Shown here one piece after another: positions 5,703-32,977 of a stretch of DNA of 64,000 nt. Both the position numbers and the translations under genes were made by a program. Source of the DNA: Candidatus Poribacteria bacterium. Lineage in GTDB: Bacteria > Poribacteria > WGA-4E > WGA-3G. Location of the stretch: NCBI GenBank assembly GCA_965205025.1, contig CBDBFU010000002.1, positions 32,001 to 96,000 on the forward strand. The letters run 5' to 3'. Within the stretch, counting starts at the first letter, position 1. Each line of letters begins with the position of its first letter. The notes under the pieces were generated by a model. It saw only the letters and a program-made list of their open reading frames with translations, ran no database searches and had not been told where the DNA came from.

Positions 5703-6107
5703 GTGAAAAGGCTAATTCTACTCCTTTTTATACCCGTGCTATTTGGATGTGGTAATAAGCAAATCAAGATATTAGCAGAAGAAACAATGGACAACGCGCG
5801 GACAAGTATAACAATAGCTGAAAAACACGGAGCACGCGATGTAGCAGTTAATGAGATCAATGCCGCTGAAGAGATGTTATCCAATGCAGAATCCGCTCAC
5901 TTTGCCGGGGATATTGAAAGAGCCTATCGCTTAGCACTACGGGCATATCTTCACGCAAGAATAGCAACTGAGAAATCAATCGCTTCACAGCATGAGGAAA
6001 ATGTTACGGAAGCACAAGCATTATTAAATTACGGACAAAAGATAACAGAGGAAGCTGTGGAAAAACTGGATACTTTAAAAGTAGAACTCTCAAACATGAA
6101 GAAATAA
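5703..6107 (+). CDS. Lipoprotein, DUF4398-like helical domain
   Basis: Signal peptide with lipobox LFGC; Ala-rich helical repeat of the kind usually found upstream of OmpA-family genes. Confidence 0.7.
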   Translation: MKRLILLLFIPVLFGCGNKQIKILAEETMDNARTSITIAEKHGARDVAVNEINAAEEMLSNAESAHFAGDIERAYRLALRAYLHARIATEKSIASQHEENVTEAQALLNYGQKITEEAVEKLDTLKVELSNMKK

Positions 6108-6113
6108 GGGTAA

Positions 6114-7760
6114 ATGCCAATGCGTGTTTATGTATGGTTATTTCTATTAACATGTACACTTTATTGTGGGTGTTGGACTGTTAAAATTGGTGATGGTATT
6201 ATCTTAGACACACAATTACAAAACGCTCAAGATTCCATCTCTAAAGCAGCAGAATTGGATGCTGAACAGTTAGCATCTGATGAATATAGCCGCGCAATTA
6301 AGCTTCTGAAATTTTCTCAACAGGCTCAGGAAAGTGGAGATTTCGCGCAAAGCATAGAGTTCGCACATCAGGCAGAACTTGTAGGATATATCGCTCTGTA
6401 TCAGGCAAAGCAACAGCAATTCCGTCAACAACTCATTGATACAAAAGAATTGATATATGAAGAACAACTTACACAGAAAGATCTTGAGTTGGATATGGAG
6501 AAGACTCGAAATGAGATAAAATCCATTGAAGTTGATCAAGCTTTGAAGAAAATTGAAAAGGAACAGCAAAATGCCGGTTCATTGGCAGCTGAATTGACAG
6601 AGACGAAAAAGTCTCTACGACAGACAGAAATTAGTGTTCCGATTACCGCAACTGAAATCTATGTCCGTATAGCCACACAGTTATTTCCAGAAATAATGAA
6701 TACACCTGAGTATGAAAAAGTTCAGTCCAGTATAAAACTTGCCACATCTCATCTTGAACGGGAAGAATTCCCCGATGCAGAAAAAGTCGCAACCGATGCT
6801 CAAACAGAAGCGAATACTCTTTTTGAACTGGCAATTCTGAAGCAAACAGAACAAAATACTGCTAAAATCGCTGCTCTCATCTCTATCATTCGAGTAGAAG
6901 TAAAAGCAAAGCGTGCGGAAGCACTAAATGCCGACACACATACCCCTCAACAATTCCAACAATTGCAAAATCAGTTGGATAATGCTAACAAATCATTTGA
7001 AGAGAATGACTATGAAAAAGCACTGCAAATTGCCCAAGCTGCTGAGTTTACTGCGGATAAAGTAATTGCAAATACAGAAATATCTGAATTTCGGCAGCGC
7101 GCACAACAAGAACATGCAGCAAAAGTAAAAAGTGCACAACAAGCATTTTCTAATCTTAAGGCTGCAATAGCGGAACAGACAGAAACCAAAGTCCCACAAT
7201 TCGCCCCACAATTGTTTGAACTTGCCACAACTTCTCTAACATCTGCTGAAGCTGCGTTTGCTACAAAGGAATACACCAAGGTTGTTGAAAGTGCACAAGC
7301 AGGACAGGATTACTTAAAACGCGCAATTGAAAAAGCAGAAAATCAAGGATCTGCTCAAGAAAGTCTGGTTGAAGCTTTCAGAGAAATCCCAAAAGCAAGA
7401 ATAATAGATCTTGAAGAAGGTGTCCTTGTTCGGATTAGTGGAGGATTGTTTGCCACTACCAGCACCCAACTTAAAGAGGCATTTTTCCCCACCTTCCTGA
7501 AACTTGCATCCGTTCTACAGCAAGATGAACTCAAAGAATATGTTATAAGAATCGAAGGACATAGTGATTCACTTGGAGATGCAAAAACAAACGAAGCATT
7601 GACTGATAAGCGTGCAAATTCAATTAAACAATTCCTTGTTGACAAAGGACAGATCTCAGCTGATCGTCTAACTGCTATTGGTTTAGGTGAATCCAAACCA
7701 ATAGACACGAACTCACAGGCAAAGAACCGTAGGATTGACATCTATATTCGCAAACCATAG
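6114..7760 (+). CDS. OmpA-family peptidoglycan-binding protein with repeated DUF4398-like/coiled-coil segments
   Basis: C-terminal IEGHSDSLG..NEALTDKRA..GLGESKP..KNRRIDI; N-terminal signal peptide with Cys. Confidence 0.85.
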   Translation: MPMRVYVWLFLLTCTLYCGCWTVKIGDGIILDTQLQNAQDSISKAAELDAEQLASDEYSRAIKLLKFSQQAQESGDFAQSIEFAHQAELVGYIALYQAKQQQFRQQLIDTKELIYEEQLTQKDLELDMEKTRNEIKSIEVDQALKKIEKEQQNAGSLAAELTETKKSLRQTEISVPITATEIYVRIATQLFPEIMNTPEYEKVQSSIKLATSHLEREEFPDAEKVATDAQTEANTLFELAILKQTEQNTAKIAALISIIRVEVKAKRAEALNADTHTPQQFQQLQNQLDNANKSFEENDYEKALQIAQAAEFTADKVIANTEISEFRQRAQQEHAAKVKSAQQAFSNLKAAIAEQTETKVPQFAPQLFELATTSLTSAEAAFATKEYTKVVESAQAGQDYLKRAIEKAENQGSAQESLVEAFREIPKARIIDLEEGVLVRISGGLFATTSTQLKEAFFPTFLKLASVLQQDELKEYVIRIEGHSDSLGDAKTNEALTDKRANSIKQFLVDKGQISADRLTAIGLGESKPIDTNSQAKNRRIDIYIRKP

Positions 7761-29671: not shown

Positions 29672-30058
29672 ATGACGATTAGATTTGTATCAATCATTCT
29701 ATTTGTGTCGATCCTCAATATGCCGATGCTCGTATCCGCGCAGGAGTCGGTATCTGAAGCACAGCAAGCTCGCGCTGATGCTGAAAAAGATGCTGAACAG
29801 AACGTTTCCTCACTCGCATGGGGATTCGGAGGTTTTGCGTTTAACGTTTTTGGCGTTGGCTATGCATACTTTGCAACCCCACGCATACCCGCAGGGACGT
29901 TACTTGAAAAAACACCAACGTATACTGAGACTTATACCCAAGTATACCGCTATCACGCCAAGCGGCGACGGCTGCAAGCCTCTGTTATCGGTTTGGGTGT
30001 ATTAATTGCTATTGGTATATTGGCTAGAACTTTTCGTAAAAGCCGTCAAAATTCATAA
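29672..30058 (+). CDS. Hypothetical exported/membrane protein
   Basis: RBS AGGAG; signal peptide ending VSA-Q; two further hydrophobic segments. Confidence 0.75.
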   Translation: MTIRFVSIILFVSILNMPMLVSAQESVSEAQQARADAEKDAEQNVSSLAWGFGGFAFNVFGVGYAYFATPRIPAGTLLEKTPTYTETYTQVYRYHAKRRRLQASVIGLGVLIAIGILARTFRKSRQNS

Positions 30059-30189
30059 ACAAAAAGGGATGGGTTGCTGGTAGGTTTGAATGGAAGTGGT
30101 ATGGAAGAAGAGAAGGATGGAAGATTGTGAGTGGAAGGTTATCTGAATGAATGTTGATATACAGCTAATCAGCGTGTAGGATTCTGTCT

Positions 30190-30232
30190 TGTCTGAATCA
30201 CGGATTACGCAGATTACACGGATTACACGGAA
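30190..30232. repeat. Short tandem 9-bp repeat
   Basis: TCTGAATCACGGATTACGCAGATTACACGGATTACACGGA. Confidence 0.6.
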
Positions 30233-30339
30233 TGGAATTGGTGGTATAAGGTTTCTTGGACAGGATAGATGTTTGTGGATCTGAACCATGGATTACTTTG
30301 ATCACTCCGCTCCTTGTATATCTCAACGAGTGGAAGTTG

Positions 30340-31056
30340 TCAAGGATGTGGCGGTGTATCCGGTCTATCTACATATGCTTGCACCATAGATGCCAGTTTC
30401 GGGTTACGTTTAATGAGCATTGAAATGATCTGGAGCAGGTTGGATTTCGGTTTCAACGCAAGCGTGGGGAGTAAGTCTCCGATGTGGAGGAATGTCTCTG
30501 GTGCTTCAATATAGGTTAAAAGGAGTGCGACAATATGTTTACAGTCTCCCTCCCAATCATAAGGACAGGAACAGCGAGTGTTGGCAATCCCGGATGGCTC
30601 CAGTTCCGCAGATGTATGATATGGTCTTATATTTGATCCTTCACACCTTGCCGACAACGTCCAGTCTTGAAGTACTGGGTTGCTGATAGCACCGGCGAAG
30701 AAGTATGCTACACCGCGTTCATAACTCTGTTCCGTGCATCTGCTACGAACCTGATGGGGGGTAAGGTCGGGAAGTTGCTTATCCGACGACAATTGTTTTG
30801 GGTCTGATGTCCCTTCTCCGTCAGCAGACTCTTCAATCCGGTCAATACAATCACTGCAGAGGGTGTAGTAGCGAACAGAATCTTGAGAAGGATCGATGAC
30901 ACCATTAACAACGTGTCTGAGTTCTTCAAACTGTGTCTTGTTCAGATGTGCTTCAAATACACTAAACTGAACGCGGGTGCCATACCCTTTTAATACTTTG
31001 GCAAGTTTGTTGCGTCTTTGGTCATCTGGTATGTCGTAAGAAATAATATAAAACAT
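30340..31056 (-). CDS. cas2: Cas2-domain / SWIM zinc-finger fusion protein (orphan; frame open upstream to 31188)
   Basis: MFYIISYDIPDDQRRNKLAKVLKGYGTRVQFSVFEAHL..DSVRYYTLCSDC is a typical Cas2 signature. C-terminal YERG..CSCPYDWEGDCKHIVALL is a SWIM CxC..CxH motif. Confidence 0.85.
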   Translation of the reverse strand: MFYIISYDIPDDQRRNKLAKVLKGYGTRVQFSVFEAHLNKTQFEELRHVVNGVIDPSQDSVRYYTLCSDCIDRIEESADGEGTSDPKQLSSDKQLPDLTPHQVRSRCTEQSYERGVAYFFAGAISNPVLQDWTLSARCEGSNIRPYHTSAELEPSGIANTRCSCPYDWEGDCKHIVALLLTYIEAPETFLHIGDLLPTLALKPKSNLLQIISMLIKRNPKLASMVQAYVDRPDTPPHP

Positions 31057-31126
31057 TTGCTGAAGTCTTCGGTAATTAGTCCAAAACCTCCGTGTTGTCT
31101 TGTGGATGTACCCCGATCCGCGTGAT

Positions 31127-31429
31127 CTATAGATACTTGACTCTCCCTGTCCGGACATCTTCAAGTGCTTCTTTACGAAATTTATCAAGCTTCCCAGCTT
31201 TCACATCCGCCTCAAACTGCTTCTCCCAGGCTTCTTCTTCAGCAACGAGTGTCTCATGTAGTTTTTTTTCGAGGATTTTTAGCAGCACGGATTCTGTGGA
31301 AGCCTCACATTTGACTTTTGGAACCTCTGGAATCCACCCGATCCAGTTGGTTCCGTTGCATTGGATGTTGGCGGTATAAGTCTCCCCAAAGACTTTGTCT
31401 TGAATTTCGACCTTCTTTATTTGCTCCAT
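31127..31429 (-). CDS. Antitoxin-like protein: HicB-like N-terminus + 'WxxQFEADVKAGKLD' helical C-terminus
   Basis: YTANIQ..WIGWIPEVPKVKCEAST..L resembles the HicB partial RNase H fold. The C-terminus resembles antitoxins found upstream of ParE/RelE-like toxins. AGGAGAG lies upstream. Confidence 0.7.
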   Translation of the reverse strand: MEQIKKVEIQDKVFGETYTANIQCNGTNWIGWIPEVPKVKCEASTESVLLKILEKKLHETLVAEEEAWEKQFEADVKAGKLDKFRKEALEDVRTGRVKYL

Positions 31430-31646
31430 GATTTGTTCTATGGTTCTCTCCTTATTGACAGAACTTTTAGCGAGAAAATTAAGAGTTCAAAGTAAATATG
31501 CCCCTGAAGTAGAAAAAATGGGACATACAATACTTTTTCCTATTTTACCACAACCTCATATTTTATTCAATCTGACCTTCATAGTTAAATAAGGTTATTT
31601 ATTTTAATGAATTATCAGTTTCTGAGTGTTACTGATAATTTATTTC

Positions 31647-31978
31647 GTAGTTTGGGTTGAACCACAGGTGAAACCCAACATTTCGTGTATGCTTAGTGTT
31701 AAATCTTGAGGTTCGTTCCTCAATCCAACCATAGGCGTCAATTTAGGGATACACCTTTCGCCCCGCAAATCAACGGTATGAATGCCTTATGGCATTCACC
31801 GGGGCTTGGGATATTGGTGATAACGACTTCTATAGACATTCCGTCCCTATGGGACTCAATTATTGTGCTTACACATTTTCTATAAACATTCCGTCCCTAT
31901 GGGACTCAATTTACCAAAACCAAGAGTTTCATTTCCTAAAATTGTCGCTAATGGTTCGTTCCACAATCCAACCTACAG
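31647..31978. mobile_element. GTAG-type REP pair interrupted by a MITE-like insert (31731-31952)
   Basis: Insert ends ATAGGCGTCAATTT / AAATTGTCGCTAAT; flanking 21-bp direct repeat GGTTCGTTCC(T/A)CAATCCAACC; two internal TAxACATTCCGTCCCTATGGGACTC copies. Confidence 0.75.
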
Positions 31979-32169: not shown

Positions 32170-32977
32170 ATGGGAATTCTAACGACAGATCAGCGTAAGC
32201 AGTGGAAGACAGAGGGTTATCTCGTTTTGAAAGAAGTACTCTCGTTTGAAGAAGTGCAAGCTTTGAGAGCGACAGTAGATGAAATGGACGCGGGAGTTTC
32301 GGAAAGGGGAGAACGTTACTGCGGATTCTGTTTTCGACAGGCGGAATGTGATGGAAGATAATGACATTTTTGTCAATCTGATGGATCATCCGGTGACATT
32401 TCCGATCGTACGTGAGTTGTTAGGTGATTACATACAGTTGAGTATGTCCGAGGTTATCGTCCGTCCCCCGAATCCGAAAGACCAAGGTTATCTGCATACC
32501 GACGGCGGACAAGCGATGCGAACTATTCGGGTCAGCAGATCGAGTTCACCACTGCAAGTCAAAATCCACTATTTCTTGACGGATCTTGAACGTCCAGACA
32601 GTGGGAACTTCACCGTTGTGCCGGGTAGCCACAATCGGACTTTTCCAGCAACGGGAGTCAAGGACGGAGCCTATATCCCTGAAGCCATCCAGTTATGCGT
32701 GAAAGCAGGAGATGCTGCCTTTTTTCCACACGCCTTATGGCACGGTGTTGTCGCAAATCGGTCAGAACAACCTCGAAAGACCTTGATCTATTGCTACAGC
32801 CACCAGTGCTTCCGTCCCTTTGACTACGAAAAGGCAACACCAGAACTTATGGAGCGATGCACGCCTCGCCAACGTCGGTTAATTGGAGATATCGGTGATT
32901 GGAAACCGGGTTCCTACTTCTATTCTCCAGGCGATCAAGAAAAGGTTATCGACGGATTAGAGGAAGTGGAAGATTAG
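32170..32977 (+). pseudogene. Phytanoyl-CoA dioxygenase (PhyH) family Fe(II)/2OG oxygenase with a +1 frameshift
   Basis: N-terminus LTTDQRKQWKTEGYLVL is in one frame; HTD, VVPGSH and LWHG..NRS..R are in the next. Removing one G at 32292-32294 gives ..DEMDAEFRKGE.. May be a sequencing error. Confidence 0.8.

Follow-up and report, generated by a model that had tools for sequence, protein, structure and literature searches.

A Cas2-SWIM fusion protein in Poribacteria, probably the retained remnant of a type III-D spacer-acquisition operon

Introduction

In the usual view, Cas2 plays a structural part in the Cas1-Cas2 integrase; the question of whether it leads an independent life is a long-running one. 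The Cas2 fusions known to be characterised are Cas2-Cas3, from type I-F systems, and Cas2-DEDDh, from type I-E systems (PDB 8fy9).

A 2023 study (PMC10910872, Fig. 6B legend and text) reported a gene for a SWIM zinc-finger protein in linkage with cas adaptation genes. We liken it to the SWIM family discussed below by description only, and that legend and text give no function, fusion or orphan form for it. A literature search found no text on a Cas2-SWIM fusion; the supplements of PMC10910872 may include the SWIM family. Here we analyse a gene in which the two are joined, found in a 64,000-nucleotide stretch of a Candidatus Poribacteria genome (the window), directly downstream of an antitoxin-like gene.

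Results

A single open frame on the minus strand (30340..31188; 282 aa from a TTG) reads through a complete Cas2 domain, then a linker and lastly a SWIM zinc-finger domain. Residues 45-117 of the 282-aa product matched the Pfam family CRISPR_Cas2 (PF09827; E 8.5e-25, 87.2 bits, cut-off 23.8), and the product also matched the cas2 model TIGR01573 of NCBIfam (E 1.3e-17, 63.8 bits, cut-off 24.5) and Cas2d of PADLOC (E 1.3e-27). Residues 190-226 matched the Pfam SWIM family (PF04434; E 6.3e-5, 22.8 bits, cut-off 19.6). The Cas2 part carries an SYDIPDD motif with the strand-1 Asp, and it also has D8 and the remaining columns on which 32 Cas2 sequences all agree. The zinc finger, CSCPYDWEGDCKH, has the CxCxnCxH signature, the Cys and His columns of which were invariant in an alignment of 27 homologues. 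A preliminary description made from the sequence had proposed just this Cas2-linker-SWIM architecture, and the matches above the Pfam and NCBIfam cut-offs, together with the Asp of SYDIPDD, bear it out. The features of the locus, with protein residues numbered from the cas2 ATG, are as follows.

31127..31429, minus strand: orphan antitoxin-like gene (100 aa), homologues of which directly precede ParE_like toxin genes in relatives
31057..31158, minus strand: ParE-like toxin remnant, 34 codons from ATG 31158 (three-frame comparison with toxin N-termini)
30835..31056, minus strand: Cas2 core, residues 1-74 from ATG 31056; ferredoxin-like fold, Asp8 kept
30760..30834, minus strand: linker, residues 75-99; predicted to be disordered, pLDDT below 50 at residues 75-89
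30343..30759, minus strand: complete N-terminal domain of a SWIM/solenoid protein, residues 100-238 (Pfam, model, structure comparison), with the CxCx7CxH zinc finger of the SWIM domain at 30535-30573
30340..30342, minus strand: TGA stop in place of an interdomain-linker Gly codon (alignment with intact loci)
30295..30339, minus strand: SWIM-gene sequence that persists untranslated beyond the stop ('QLPLVEIYKER..'), where similarity ends

Local scores were obtained for the models of both domains (pLDDT 85-96 for residues 1-70 of the Cas2 core; 88-98 up to residue 230 of the SWIM domain and 79 for its final eight residues). The Cas2 model superposed on 1zpw with a Z score of 13.2 (rmsd 2.8 over 75 residues) and on the Cas2 chains of solved Cas1-Cas2 complexes with Z scores of 8.7-11.7 (7mi4_E, 11.7; 7kft_B, 9.8).

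The usual surroundings of Cas2 are missing. The genome (5.66 Mb, 95.5% complete) gave no match anywhere to a cas1, cas6 or RAMP family, nor to a reverse transcriptase (RT) query, and the fused frame was its sole Cas2 match. The absence of cas1 and other cas genes that had been reported for the window was thus confirmed, and for cas1, cas6 and RAMP genes it extends to the genome. No cas1 or CRISPR array stands beside this cas2, whereas both do so at the orthologous loci of relatives. Two degenerate copies of the CRISPR repeat of the family lie 313 nt apart on contig C13, separated by duplicated sequence; no cas gene turned up within 10 kb of them. A repeat of ~35 nt at 30200-30235 of the window was considered as a CRISPR repeat and rejected, being a dispersed element built of 9-mers with flanks that repeat too.

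Those relatives point to the source of the gene. In related Poribacteria, cas2 neighbours a gene for a SWIM/alpha-solenoid protein of 457-502 aa within a type III-D operon, cas6-cas2-SWIM-RT-cas1. Sixteen loci were fetched in all; leaving out one of them, that of the sister species G068, the five genes stood in this order at all 15 loci from other genomes, with RT or SWIM damaged in four. Beside these operons lie genes for RAMPs, Csx10, Csx19, Csx7, Csx1 and Csm6 (Pfam, NCBIfam), and arrays with a 37-nt repeat adjoin cas1. The operon RT matched the PADLOC models for CRISPR-associated RT and for the RT part of RT-Cas1 fusions. Matches to the Cas2 part and the SWIM part were adjacent in 22 of 100 other genomes of the family that were searched, and the window Cas2 is 60-79% identical to the cas2 products of intact CRISPR loci. 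Outside Poribacteria, 30 loci with a related Cas2 (L064-L093) were of the Cas1-Cas2 or RT-Cas1-Cas2 kind and gave no SWIM hit. Of the full gene set of a type III-D system with an RT-linked adaptation module (Csx10, Csx19, RAMPs, cas6, cas1, cas2, RT and an array), the window retains only cas2 and part of the SWIM gene; its locus is what is left of such a system and does not itself qualify as one.

Alignment with the intact loci, where the SWIM gene normally starts 1 nt after the cas2 stop, accounts for the fusion. A 1-nt deletion between 30803 and 30802 (gap column 310) shifts cas2 into the SWIM frame, and the linker also contains the old stop codon of cas2 and the old start codon of SWIM, which has become AAG (30778-30780). 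The TGA that ends the frame falls at a position corresponding to a linker of low confidence (pLDDT below 50, residues 138-146) in the model of a full-length homologue, the domain there comprising residues 1-137. The remaining ~300 codons of the SWIM gene are absent from the genome, since residues 1-254 of P0215, a full-length fusion from a public assembly, matched with one internal TGA and nothing else matched genome-wide. The 1-nt deletion, the ATG-to-AAG change, the TGA stop and 4 nt inserted downstream of that stop are common to the window and G068. The order of events that these alignments show begins with the 1-nt deletion, 13 codons before the cas2 stop, which placed cas2 in frame with the SWIM gene and created a Cas2-SWIM fusion. 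Through the Gly-to-TGA change in the disordered linker and a deletion, the solenoid was then lost along with RT, cas1, cas6 and the genes of the effector, leaving a two-domain protein (the Cas2 core, a flexible linker of ~25 residues and the whole SWIM N-domain) that purifying selection has kept in a clade. We are highly confident that the frame is a derived remnant of a type III-D spacer-acquisition operon that originated in this way.

The junction is real and is not confined to this assembly. Ungapped contigs from three other studies cross it (run X3 record 20, 30367-31033; run X2 record 11, 30551-30999; run X4 record 28, 30698-31018), and a further ungapped contig, from run X1, which may be the source sample, spans 30520-31205. 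Public assemblies hold ten other distinct fused protein sequences, so that 11 are known in all, each keeping the junction; 8 of the 11 end at the position of the window TGA, and 2, of 206 aa, have 'MFEAHL' as their called start, so that residues 1-32 of Cas2 may be missing from them. In P0215 (552 aa), which is 88% identical and has the same junction, Cas2 is joined to the full-length SWIM protein; this sequence surfaced only in a search for longer proteins. All 13 fused rows of the tree formed one clade (support 100/98), in which the 12 truncated rows grouped together beside P0215 as their sister (99/95). The truncated fusion is thus one clade of 12 sequences, and in G068 it is syntenic with the window, both loci having genes for an M20 peptidase, SAM_HAT_C, an epimerase and PD40 in the neighbourhood. 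A further 1-nt deletion in G068 (at window 30761) splits the SWIM frame, without a start codon, from cas2; elsewhere, G068 also has a second pair of Cas1 and Cas2. In an exhaustive search of representatives, no hit among the best 150 of 4741 covered both domains, which argues that the fusion is confined to near relatives, and scans of JGI metagenomes and of genome contigs found no relic DNA beyond G068. The preliminary description had allowed for a recent chimera; a chimera it is, but the dS of 0.4-0.6 to the sister species shows that it is not a recent one.

That divergence also allowed selection to be assessed, although the dN/dS values come from one DNA pair, the window and G068, the other 10 fused sequences being known as proteins only. 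The ratio was 0.16 for the Cas2 part (dS 0.63) and 0.19 for the SWIM domain (dS 0.40), with binomial tests departing from neutrality in each (p 8e-6 and 1.4e-7, respectively). Flanking genes gave 0.05-0.175 for comparison, and intact loci 0.09-0.39 for Cas2 and 0.20-0.39 for the SWIM N-domain. Differences between the two sequences fell 17, 9 and 30 times at codon positions 1, 2 and 3, and not one of 20,000 spectrum-keeping permutations was as low in amino-acid changes as the observed pair in either domain. Substitutions in the linker, between the two constrained domains, were neutral-like (p 0.21), and just 3.4% of neutral runs stayed free of stops. Changes between relics in their SWIM domains stood at 3/48 at columns invariant in intact SWIM proteins versus 20/98. 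Of 49 positions at which 15 intact Cas2 proteins all agree, 6-12 are changed in the relic Cas2 sequences. These include F34 and R62 (in P0002) as well as the entire tail 'VPAVGD', which is invariant in intact loci and altered in all relics; these changes indicate a changed or relaxed constraint. The proposal that this Cas2 had left CRISPR adaptation and was still under selection agrees with dN/dS ratios of 0.16-0.19 in a genome with no Cas1. Judged from these substitution patterns, Cas2-SWIM is reasonably likely to be still functional without Cas1.

The antitoxin-like gene and the toxin codons upstream of cas2 overlap. The 100-aa antitoxin-like protein had no family match in Pfam or NCBIfam. 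In relatives, a toxin ORF followed its homologue at five of seven loci, and a comparison of four loci showed a full toxin at three and a truncated one at the fourth; both of the toxins scanned matched ParE_like (PF24732, Pfam; E 1.3e-9 and 1.1e-7), and the paired genes overlapped or were spaced by 1 nt. In the window, the toxin stub overlaps the end of the antitoxin gene and is in frame with cas2. Its residues 'IYRS..IHKTTRRFWTNYRRLQQ' align with ParE-like toxin N-termini from relatives ('IYRTNRKFWDFYQQLP', 'IYRTNQTFWACYRNLS'), as the preliminary description had suspected, and the similarity stops at the cas2 ATG. Public annotation starts a 272-aa protein (P0214) at the ATG of the stub, 31158. 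Where a ParDE-like pair would have its cognate toxin gene intact, only 34 toxin codons remain, which leaves the antitoxin without a partner. The arrangement is also not conserved across lineages: the similarity of G068 to the window begins at query position 445, which is window 31056 and the cas2 start codon, a run X3 contig likewise diverges at 31056/31057, and the other 10 fused proteins lack the stub, being called from the cas2 ATG or, in two cases, from a later Met. The native AGAGG ahead of cas2 has been lost in the window, and a scan of 29900-31800 gave 6 promoter-like sites (4.5 expected) and 1 terminator-like site (1.7 expected). In this lineage alone, a ParE-type cassette would have been cut back such that the antitoxin gene and 34 toxin codons came to abut the cas2 ATG in frame, and the remnant probably supplies transcription and perhaps a new translation start. 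Because the junction is restricted to the lineage of the window, we read it, on this sequence comparison, as an accident of deletion.

The SWIM part has a structural relative in ZSWIM8. The whole SWIM N-domain, not the finger alone, aligned to residues 104-270 of ZSWIM8 (9rwz_M; Z 12.4, rmsd 4.1, 144 residues), and the full-length SWIM protein has the SWIM-plus-helical-repeat layout of ZSWIM8 (Foldseek E 1.1e-6). The PADLOC candidate PDC-S62 was a further match (E 1.7e-10). In ZSWIM8, the SWIM domain is described, in part of PMC13083262, as a zinc-centred module that organises dimerisation and partner assembly. A predicted complex of two Cas2 chains and the SWIM N-domain of an intact locus (G058) scored 0.01 against a mark of 0.32, with the controls not folded, and so weighs neither for nor against such a complex.

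Discussion

Taken together, these results favor, with good though not full confidence, the reading that Cas2-SWIM is the remnant of a lost operon, that it is still selected and that its junction with the toxin-antitoxin genes is accidental. The preliminary description had instead cast Cas2-SWIM in the effector role of a toxin-antitoxin-like defence module, with the upstream antitoxin to neutralise it. It does sit in the toxin position, in frame with the first 34 codons of the toxin and probably on one transcript with the antitoxin; the Cas2 fold is shared with VapD-type toxins (BPSL1038, 7vxr, Z 6.9); and the frame is under purifying selection. However, the junction is seen only in the lineage of the window, G068 and the X3 contigs diverging at 31056/31057. 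Since the other fused proteins start at the cas2 ATG or a later Met, selection on the fusion predates the junction and is independent of it. The homologues of the antitoxin pair with ParE_like toxins, and an identity of 60-79% to intact CRISPR cas2 means that this Cas2 does not belong to a VapD-like lineage, as does its better fit to Cas2 (Z 13.2) than to BPSL1038. Cas2 and SWIM inherited their pairing from the cas6-cas2-SWIM-RT-cas1 operon, and their fusion is older than the junction; we consider an effector role quite improbable.

Decay offers another account, in which the gene is a neutral pseudogene of a degraded CRISPR locus that has not yet accumulated disabling mutations. All of its partners are gone and it is truncated, the G068 copy is frameshifted, the start of Cas2 may be missing from 2 of the 11 sequences, and residues invariant in intact Cas2 are changed in the relics. 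Against this stand dN/dS ratios of 0.16-0.19 at a dS of 0.4-0.6 accrued after the shared truncation, with differences concentrated at third codon positions. None of the 20,000 neutral permutations was as conservative and few neutral runs stayed open, the constraint is as strong as in intact loci, relic changes avoid the SWIM-invariant columns, and the neutral-like linker is flanked by constrained domains. We regard neutrality as unlikely. That Cas2-SWIM serves CRISPR adaptation in trans, with cas1 and an array carried by a mobile element or lying in the ~4.5% of the genome that is unassembled, is highly improbable. In its favour, the sequence is a metagenome-assembled genome of 95.5% completeness, there are degenerate repeats on contig C13 and G068 has its second Cas1/Cas2 pair; but no Cas1, Cas6, RAMP or RT-query match occurs in 5.66 Mb, the tail invariant in intact Cas2 is altered in all relics, and the C13 repeats, separated by duplicated sequence, have no cas gene within 10 kb. 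An assembly chimera, which nothing but the odd architecture would suggest, deserves virtually no credence given the ungapped contigs of three other studies and of run X1, the synteny with G068 and the ten other fused proteins.

On the reading of a selected operon remnant, a role can be proposed for the protein. In intact systems, the SWIM N-domain would dock the SWIM/solenoid protein on Cas2, and the solenoid would reach the free-standing RT or its substrate; the retained piece would most likely be a dimeric nucleic-acid-binding or -cleaving module or a protein-assembly module. We put this specific biochemical role forward as a rather doubtful suggestion. It is possible, and we hold it as a tentative view, that Cas2-SWIM(N) was exapted as a stand-alone functional protein, a gene family derived from cas2 that selection has maintained since CRISPR-Cas was lost completely, the SWIM/solenoid protein being an uncharacterised RT-linked subunit of type III-D adaptation that binds Cas2 by its SWIM domain and links the integrase to the free-standing RT. 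The natural fusions, both the 552-aa full-length one and the truncated ones, speak for a physical partnership of Cas2 with the SWIM/solenoid protein, which points to the latter as a candidate accessory factor for acquiring spacers from RNA in systems whose RT and Cas1 are separate proteins. The locus offers a natural case in which cas2 and one domain of an accessory neighbour are selected as strongly as in intact loci, in a genome without cas1, effectors or array, and it illustrates that deletions can create a merely apparent toxin-antitoxin-like gene order.

Among known systems, the window Cas2 has the family and fold of the Cas2 of RT-associated type III adaptation (Cas6-RT-Cas1--Cas2, PDB 7kft; Pfam, NCBIfam, PADLOC and the 7kft_B superposition), but its genome lacks cas1, RT, cas6, effector genes and array, and it is fused and changed in its C-terminal tail. 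From VapD/Cas2-like stand-alone nucleases such as BPSL1038 it differs as a two-domain fusion, with purifying selection on both domains and a clade of 12. The gene upstream is of a family found ahead of ParE_like toxins (PF24732) in ParDE-type type II toxin-antitoxin systems, but here the toxin is reduced to 34 codons. The N-terminal "E3 superdomain" of ZSWIM8 (PDB 9rwz) has the fold of the SWIM N-domain; at 18% identity, however, the SWIM protein is bacterial and CRISPR-linked and has no cullin or BC boxes, and a common fold does not imply a common function. Cas2-SWIM is a new Cas2 fusion variant. Like Cas2-Cas3 and Cas2-DEDDh, it has Cas2 covalently joined to a partner from the same locus, as P0215 shows for the full-length SWIM/solenoid protein; unlike them, its partner is a SWIM zinc-finger/alpha-solenoid protein in which no enzyme domain was recognised.

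The Cas2-SWIM gene

The preliminary description of this DNA was right on all points of observation, that is, the ORFs, the Cas2 and SWIM domains, the antitoxin-like neighbor and the absent cas1. The ORF listing gave the following two features:

31127-31429, minus strand, antitoxin-like ORF, 100 aa
30340-31188, minus strand, Cas2-SWIM ORF, 282 aa from a TTG, overlapping the end of the 100-aa ORF

Pfam placed Cas2 (PF09827, E 8.5e-25) at residues 45-117 of the 282-aa ORF and SWIM (PF04434, E 6.3e-5, over the cut-off) at residues 190-226, and NCBIfam also assigned the ORF to cas2. The Cas2 part has its own ATG at 31056 (“MFYIISYDI”), giving a 238-aa protein, and the 272-aa protein of the public annotation (P0214) uses another in-frame ATG, at 31158. 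The 100-aa protein matched no Pfam or NCBIfam family. This Cas2 is the only one in the genome (5.66 Mb, 33 contigs, 95.5% complete), in which no Cas1, RAMP or Cas6 family matches were found. When the junction was checked in reads, as had been proposed, contigs of three other studies crossed from Cas2 into SWIM with 3-6% differences and no gaps, and in run X1, which may be the source sample, Logan contigs covered 30000-30541, 30520-31205 and 31312-31600 with no differences.

The cas2-SWIM operon of relatives

We searched 101 genomes of the family and fetched 16 loci from those with adjoining Cas2 and SWIM. The two matches adjoin in 22 of the 100 other genomes, in most of which the SWIM part is the start of a ~470-510 aa open frame. 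The gene order by tblastn was Cas6, Cas2, SWIM, RT, Cas1 in all 15 fetched loci other than that of G068, the sister species sharing the truncated fusion; RT or SWIM was damaged in four of the 15. The neighbors in these relatives were named RAMPs, Csx10, Csx19, Csx7, Csx1/Cas_APE2256 and Csm6 (Pfam, NCBIfam), and the locus is of type III-D. CRISPR arrays with a 37-nt repeat adjoin cas1, and the RT matches models of group-II-intron-like RTs, CRISPR-associated RTs and the RT part of RT-Cas1 fusions. A single base separates the cas2 stop codon TGA from the SWIM-gene ATG in intact loci.

The SWIM gene is accessory. It is missing from eleven further Cas6-Cas2 loci, some of which have RT and Cas1 and one of which has a small array where SWIM would be. 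Outside Poribacteria, 30 loci with related Cas2 (~40-55% identity) carry Cas1-Cas2 or RT-Cas1-Cas2, and no SWIM match was found in them.

Several loci have features of their own. A gene for a 543-aa PLP-dependent decarboxylase, an odd, conserved intruder, is found on the opposite strand within the cas2-SWIM-RT-cas1 operon or at its edge in several genomes (L022, L024, L031, L033 and L035), between SWIM and RT in 5 of the 15 fetched loci. G066 has a small CRISPR array between cas2 and RT, at the expected SWIM-gene position (L104:8345-9158). In G047 (L030:9917-11381), an internal deletion is suggested by SWIM residues 1-266 abutting RT residues 1-217. G068 has a second, different adaptation pair (C115:1390-2728, L105), with Cas1 in a 549-aa frame beside a Cas2 of 42% identity.

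Origin of the fusion and truncation

Alignment of the window and G068 with two intact loci revealed a 1-nt deletion common to the first two, between window positions 30803 and 30802 and 13 codons before the cas2 stop, that brings cas2 into the SWIM-gene frame. In Cas2, just the four C-terminal residues are replaced, and AAG now stands in place of the SWIM start ATG. Both sequences have TGA (30340-30342) at the same codon, where homologues have Gly, and a 4-nt insertion just past it; in both, similarity to the SWIM protein is gone after residue ~165, and the flanking genes are the same, with M20 peptidase and SAM_HAT_C at one end and epimerase and PD40 at the opposite end.

A public 552-aa protein (P0215), 88% identical and with the same junction “TSDPKQLSSDKQLPDL”, consists of Cas2 fused to the full-length SWIM protein. 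In a maximum-likelihood tree of the SWIM N-domain, all 13 fused rows form one clade (support 100/98), P0215 branches as sister to the 12 truncated rows (99/95), and the sister group of the fused clade consists of separate SWIM genes, for example that of G065. It follows that fusion preceded truncation, after which the truncated form diversified. We concluded that Cas2-SWIM is a real feature of ordinary origin, the decay of a CRISPR locus.

Just downstream of the truncated gene, at 30200-30235, read depth peaks over a copy of a dispersed repeat that consists of 9-mers (CCGTGTAATCC...), which has many copies across the genus and tandem 71-nt units at G000:C2:339150-339660 in the window's own genome. 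We rejected it as a CRISPR repeat on account of this dispersed 9-mer makeup and of flanks that are repeated as well; it might mark the deletion breakpoint. Elsewhere in the genome (G000:C13:229154-229490, L106-L108), the family's CRISPR repeat survives as two degenerate copies at a distance of 313 nt, the stretch between them containing duplicated sequence; no cas genes were found around them, and within 10 kb there are three antitoxin-like paralogues, one with an intact ParE-like toxin. These copies are probably another leftover of the lost locus.

Selection on the fusion

Since the window and G068 share the fusion and the stop, all divergence between them is later than both events.

Nei-Gojobori estimates (relic values from the single DNA pair, window versus G068)
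Sequence; dS; dN/dS
Cas2 codons 1-79, window versus G068; 0.63; 0.16
SWIM codons 94-238, window versus G068; 0.40; 0.19
M20 peptidase (flank); 1.05; 0.05
Epimerase (flank); 0.54; 0.11
SAM_HAT_C (flank); 0.86; 0.145
PD40 (flank); 0.55; 0.175
Cas2, six pairs of intact loci; 0.10-0.58; 0.09-0.39
SWIM N-domain, six pairs of intact loci; 0.24-0.45; 0.20-0.39

Binomial tests on the window-G068 pair rejected neutrality (p 8e-6 for Cas2, 1.4e-7 for SWIM), and differences in the SWIM part at codon positions 1, 2 and 3 numbered 17, 9 and 30. When the observed substitutions were placed randomly 20,000 times with the base spectrum kept, changed residues averaged 25.4 (minimum 16) in Cas2 and 35.2 (minimum 23) in SWIM, against 15 and 22 observed; the linker was neutral-like (5 observed versus 6.4, p 0.21), and the frame stayed free of stops in only 3.4% of runs. 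In the SWIM part, changes between the two relics avoid columns invariant in intact SWIM domains (3 of 48 such columns versus 20 of 98 elsewhere). The junction is kept in all 11 distinct fused proteins (84-100% identical), eight of which share the same end residue. Against function, a further 1-nt deletion in G068 (window 30761) detaches the SWIM frame, which has no start codon there; two of the 11 fused proteins begin only at “MFEAHL”; and relic Cas2 departs from intact Cas2 at 6-12 of the latter's 49 invariant columns, chiefly in the C-terminal tail. We read the pattern of substitutions as that of a protein that has lost the constraint imposed by Cas1, with constraint on the fold remaining.

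The junction with the antitoxin-like gene

At least 20 genomes of the genus carry homologues of the 100-aa gene at other sites. An ORF of 83-92 aa lies behind the homologue, overlapping or at most 1 nt away, in five of seven loci, and both follower ORFs scanned matched ParE_like (PF24732); in further loci the toxin frame is full in three of four and truncated in one. In G076 (L050:1433-1720 and downstream), the ParE-like toxin stops after ~40 residues; orphaned antitoxins of this family therefore recur.

The preliminary description had proposed, as one of two readings, that Cas2 in the toxin position serves as the effector of a toxin-antitoxin or defense module. Toxin N-termini (“IYRTNRKFWDFYQQLPRDIQ..”) do match the window's “IYRS..TTRRFWTNYRRLQQ”, and the match ends exactly at the cas2 ATG, which is also where DNA similarity between the window and G068 starts. 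The ribosome-binding site of AGAGG type before cas2, kept in G068 and in intact loci, is lost in the window. Two contigs of run X3 cease matching the window at 31057, and none of the 10 other fused proteins has the toxin stub. The junction is therefore later than the fusion and was seen in the window's lineage alone; the proposal of Cas2 as a toxin is not supported. Through the in-frame join, the antitoxin operon may now drive Cas2-SWIM expression, but there is no sign that the fusion protein is controlled by the antitoxin.

Nearby, at 32170-32977, a gene for a PhyH-like dioxygenase seems split into overlapping ORFs (32170-32361 and 32279-32977), the Pfam match in the longer spanning only profile positions 34-212, and is probably frameshifted. 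No counterpart was found among the G068 ORFs between the epimerase gene and cas2.

Domain structure and relation to known systems

In the AlphaFold model of a full-length SWIM protein (457 aa, mean pLDDT 88.9), residues 1-137 form an alpha/beta N-domain around the zinc finger, residues 138-146 are disordered (pLDDT below 50) and residues 150-454 make up an all-helical repeat domain. The stop in the window maps to residue 146, within the disordered stretch, and the truncation is a clean one, falling between domains. In the model of the 238-aa fusion (pLDDT 89.0), the Cas2 core is confident and matches solved Cas2 structures (1zpw, Z 13.2), the linker (75-89) is disordered, and the SWIM N-domain is very confident (pLDDT 88-98 up to residue 230).

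Many Poribacteria have a 334-aa SWIM paralogue (L058, L060 and L061, around 5992-7002), whose neighbors are a Yip1 gene at one end and, at the other, two DUF488 genes and a DuOB-RecQ-type helicase. It nests within the CRISPR-linked SWIM clade of the tree and would be a second escape of the SWIM gene from the CRISPR locus.

Two things here are not ordinary: the SWIM protein is a new fusion partner of Cas2, and an orphan Cas2-SWIM(N) evolves as a working gene does, in a genome in which other cas genes were not found. Our literature search on SWIM, Cas2, RT and CRISPR found no paper describing a Cas2-SWIM fusion. Type XIII retron RTs have been linked with a different SWIM protein and with HEAT/ARM proteins (Mestre et al. 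2020, PMC7736814). A panel legend on new adaptation-module associations lists “SWIM: Zinc Finger domain” (Altae-Tran et al. 2023, PMC10910872); the association of SWIM with adaptation may therefore already be catalogued there, uncharacterised in the accessible part of the text. The PADLOC defense candidate PDC-S62 has its N-domain in common with the SWIM protein (E 1.7e-10). Foldseek ranked ZSWIM8 first for the full-length SWIM model (E 1.1e-6), with TPR, HEAT and PPR repeat proteins next. ZSWIM8 residues 104-270 match the SWIM part of the fusion (Z 12.4, rmsd 4.1, 144 residues), a region described in ZSWIM8 as the zinc-centered organizer of a dimeric assembly platform (PMC13083262).
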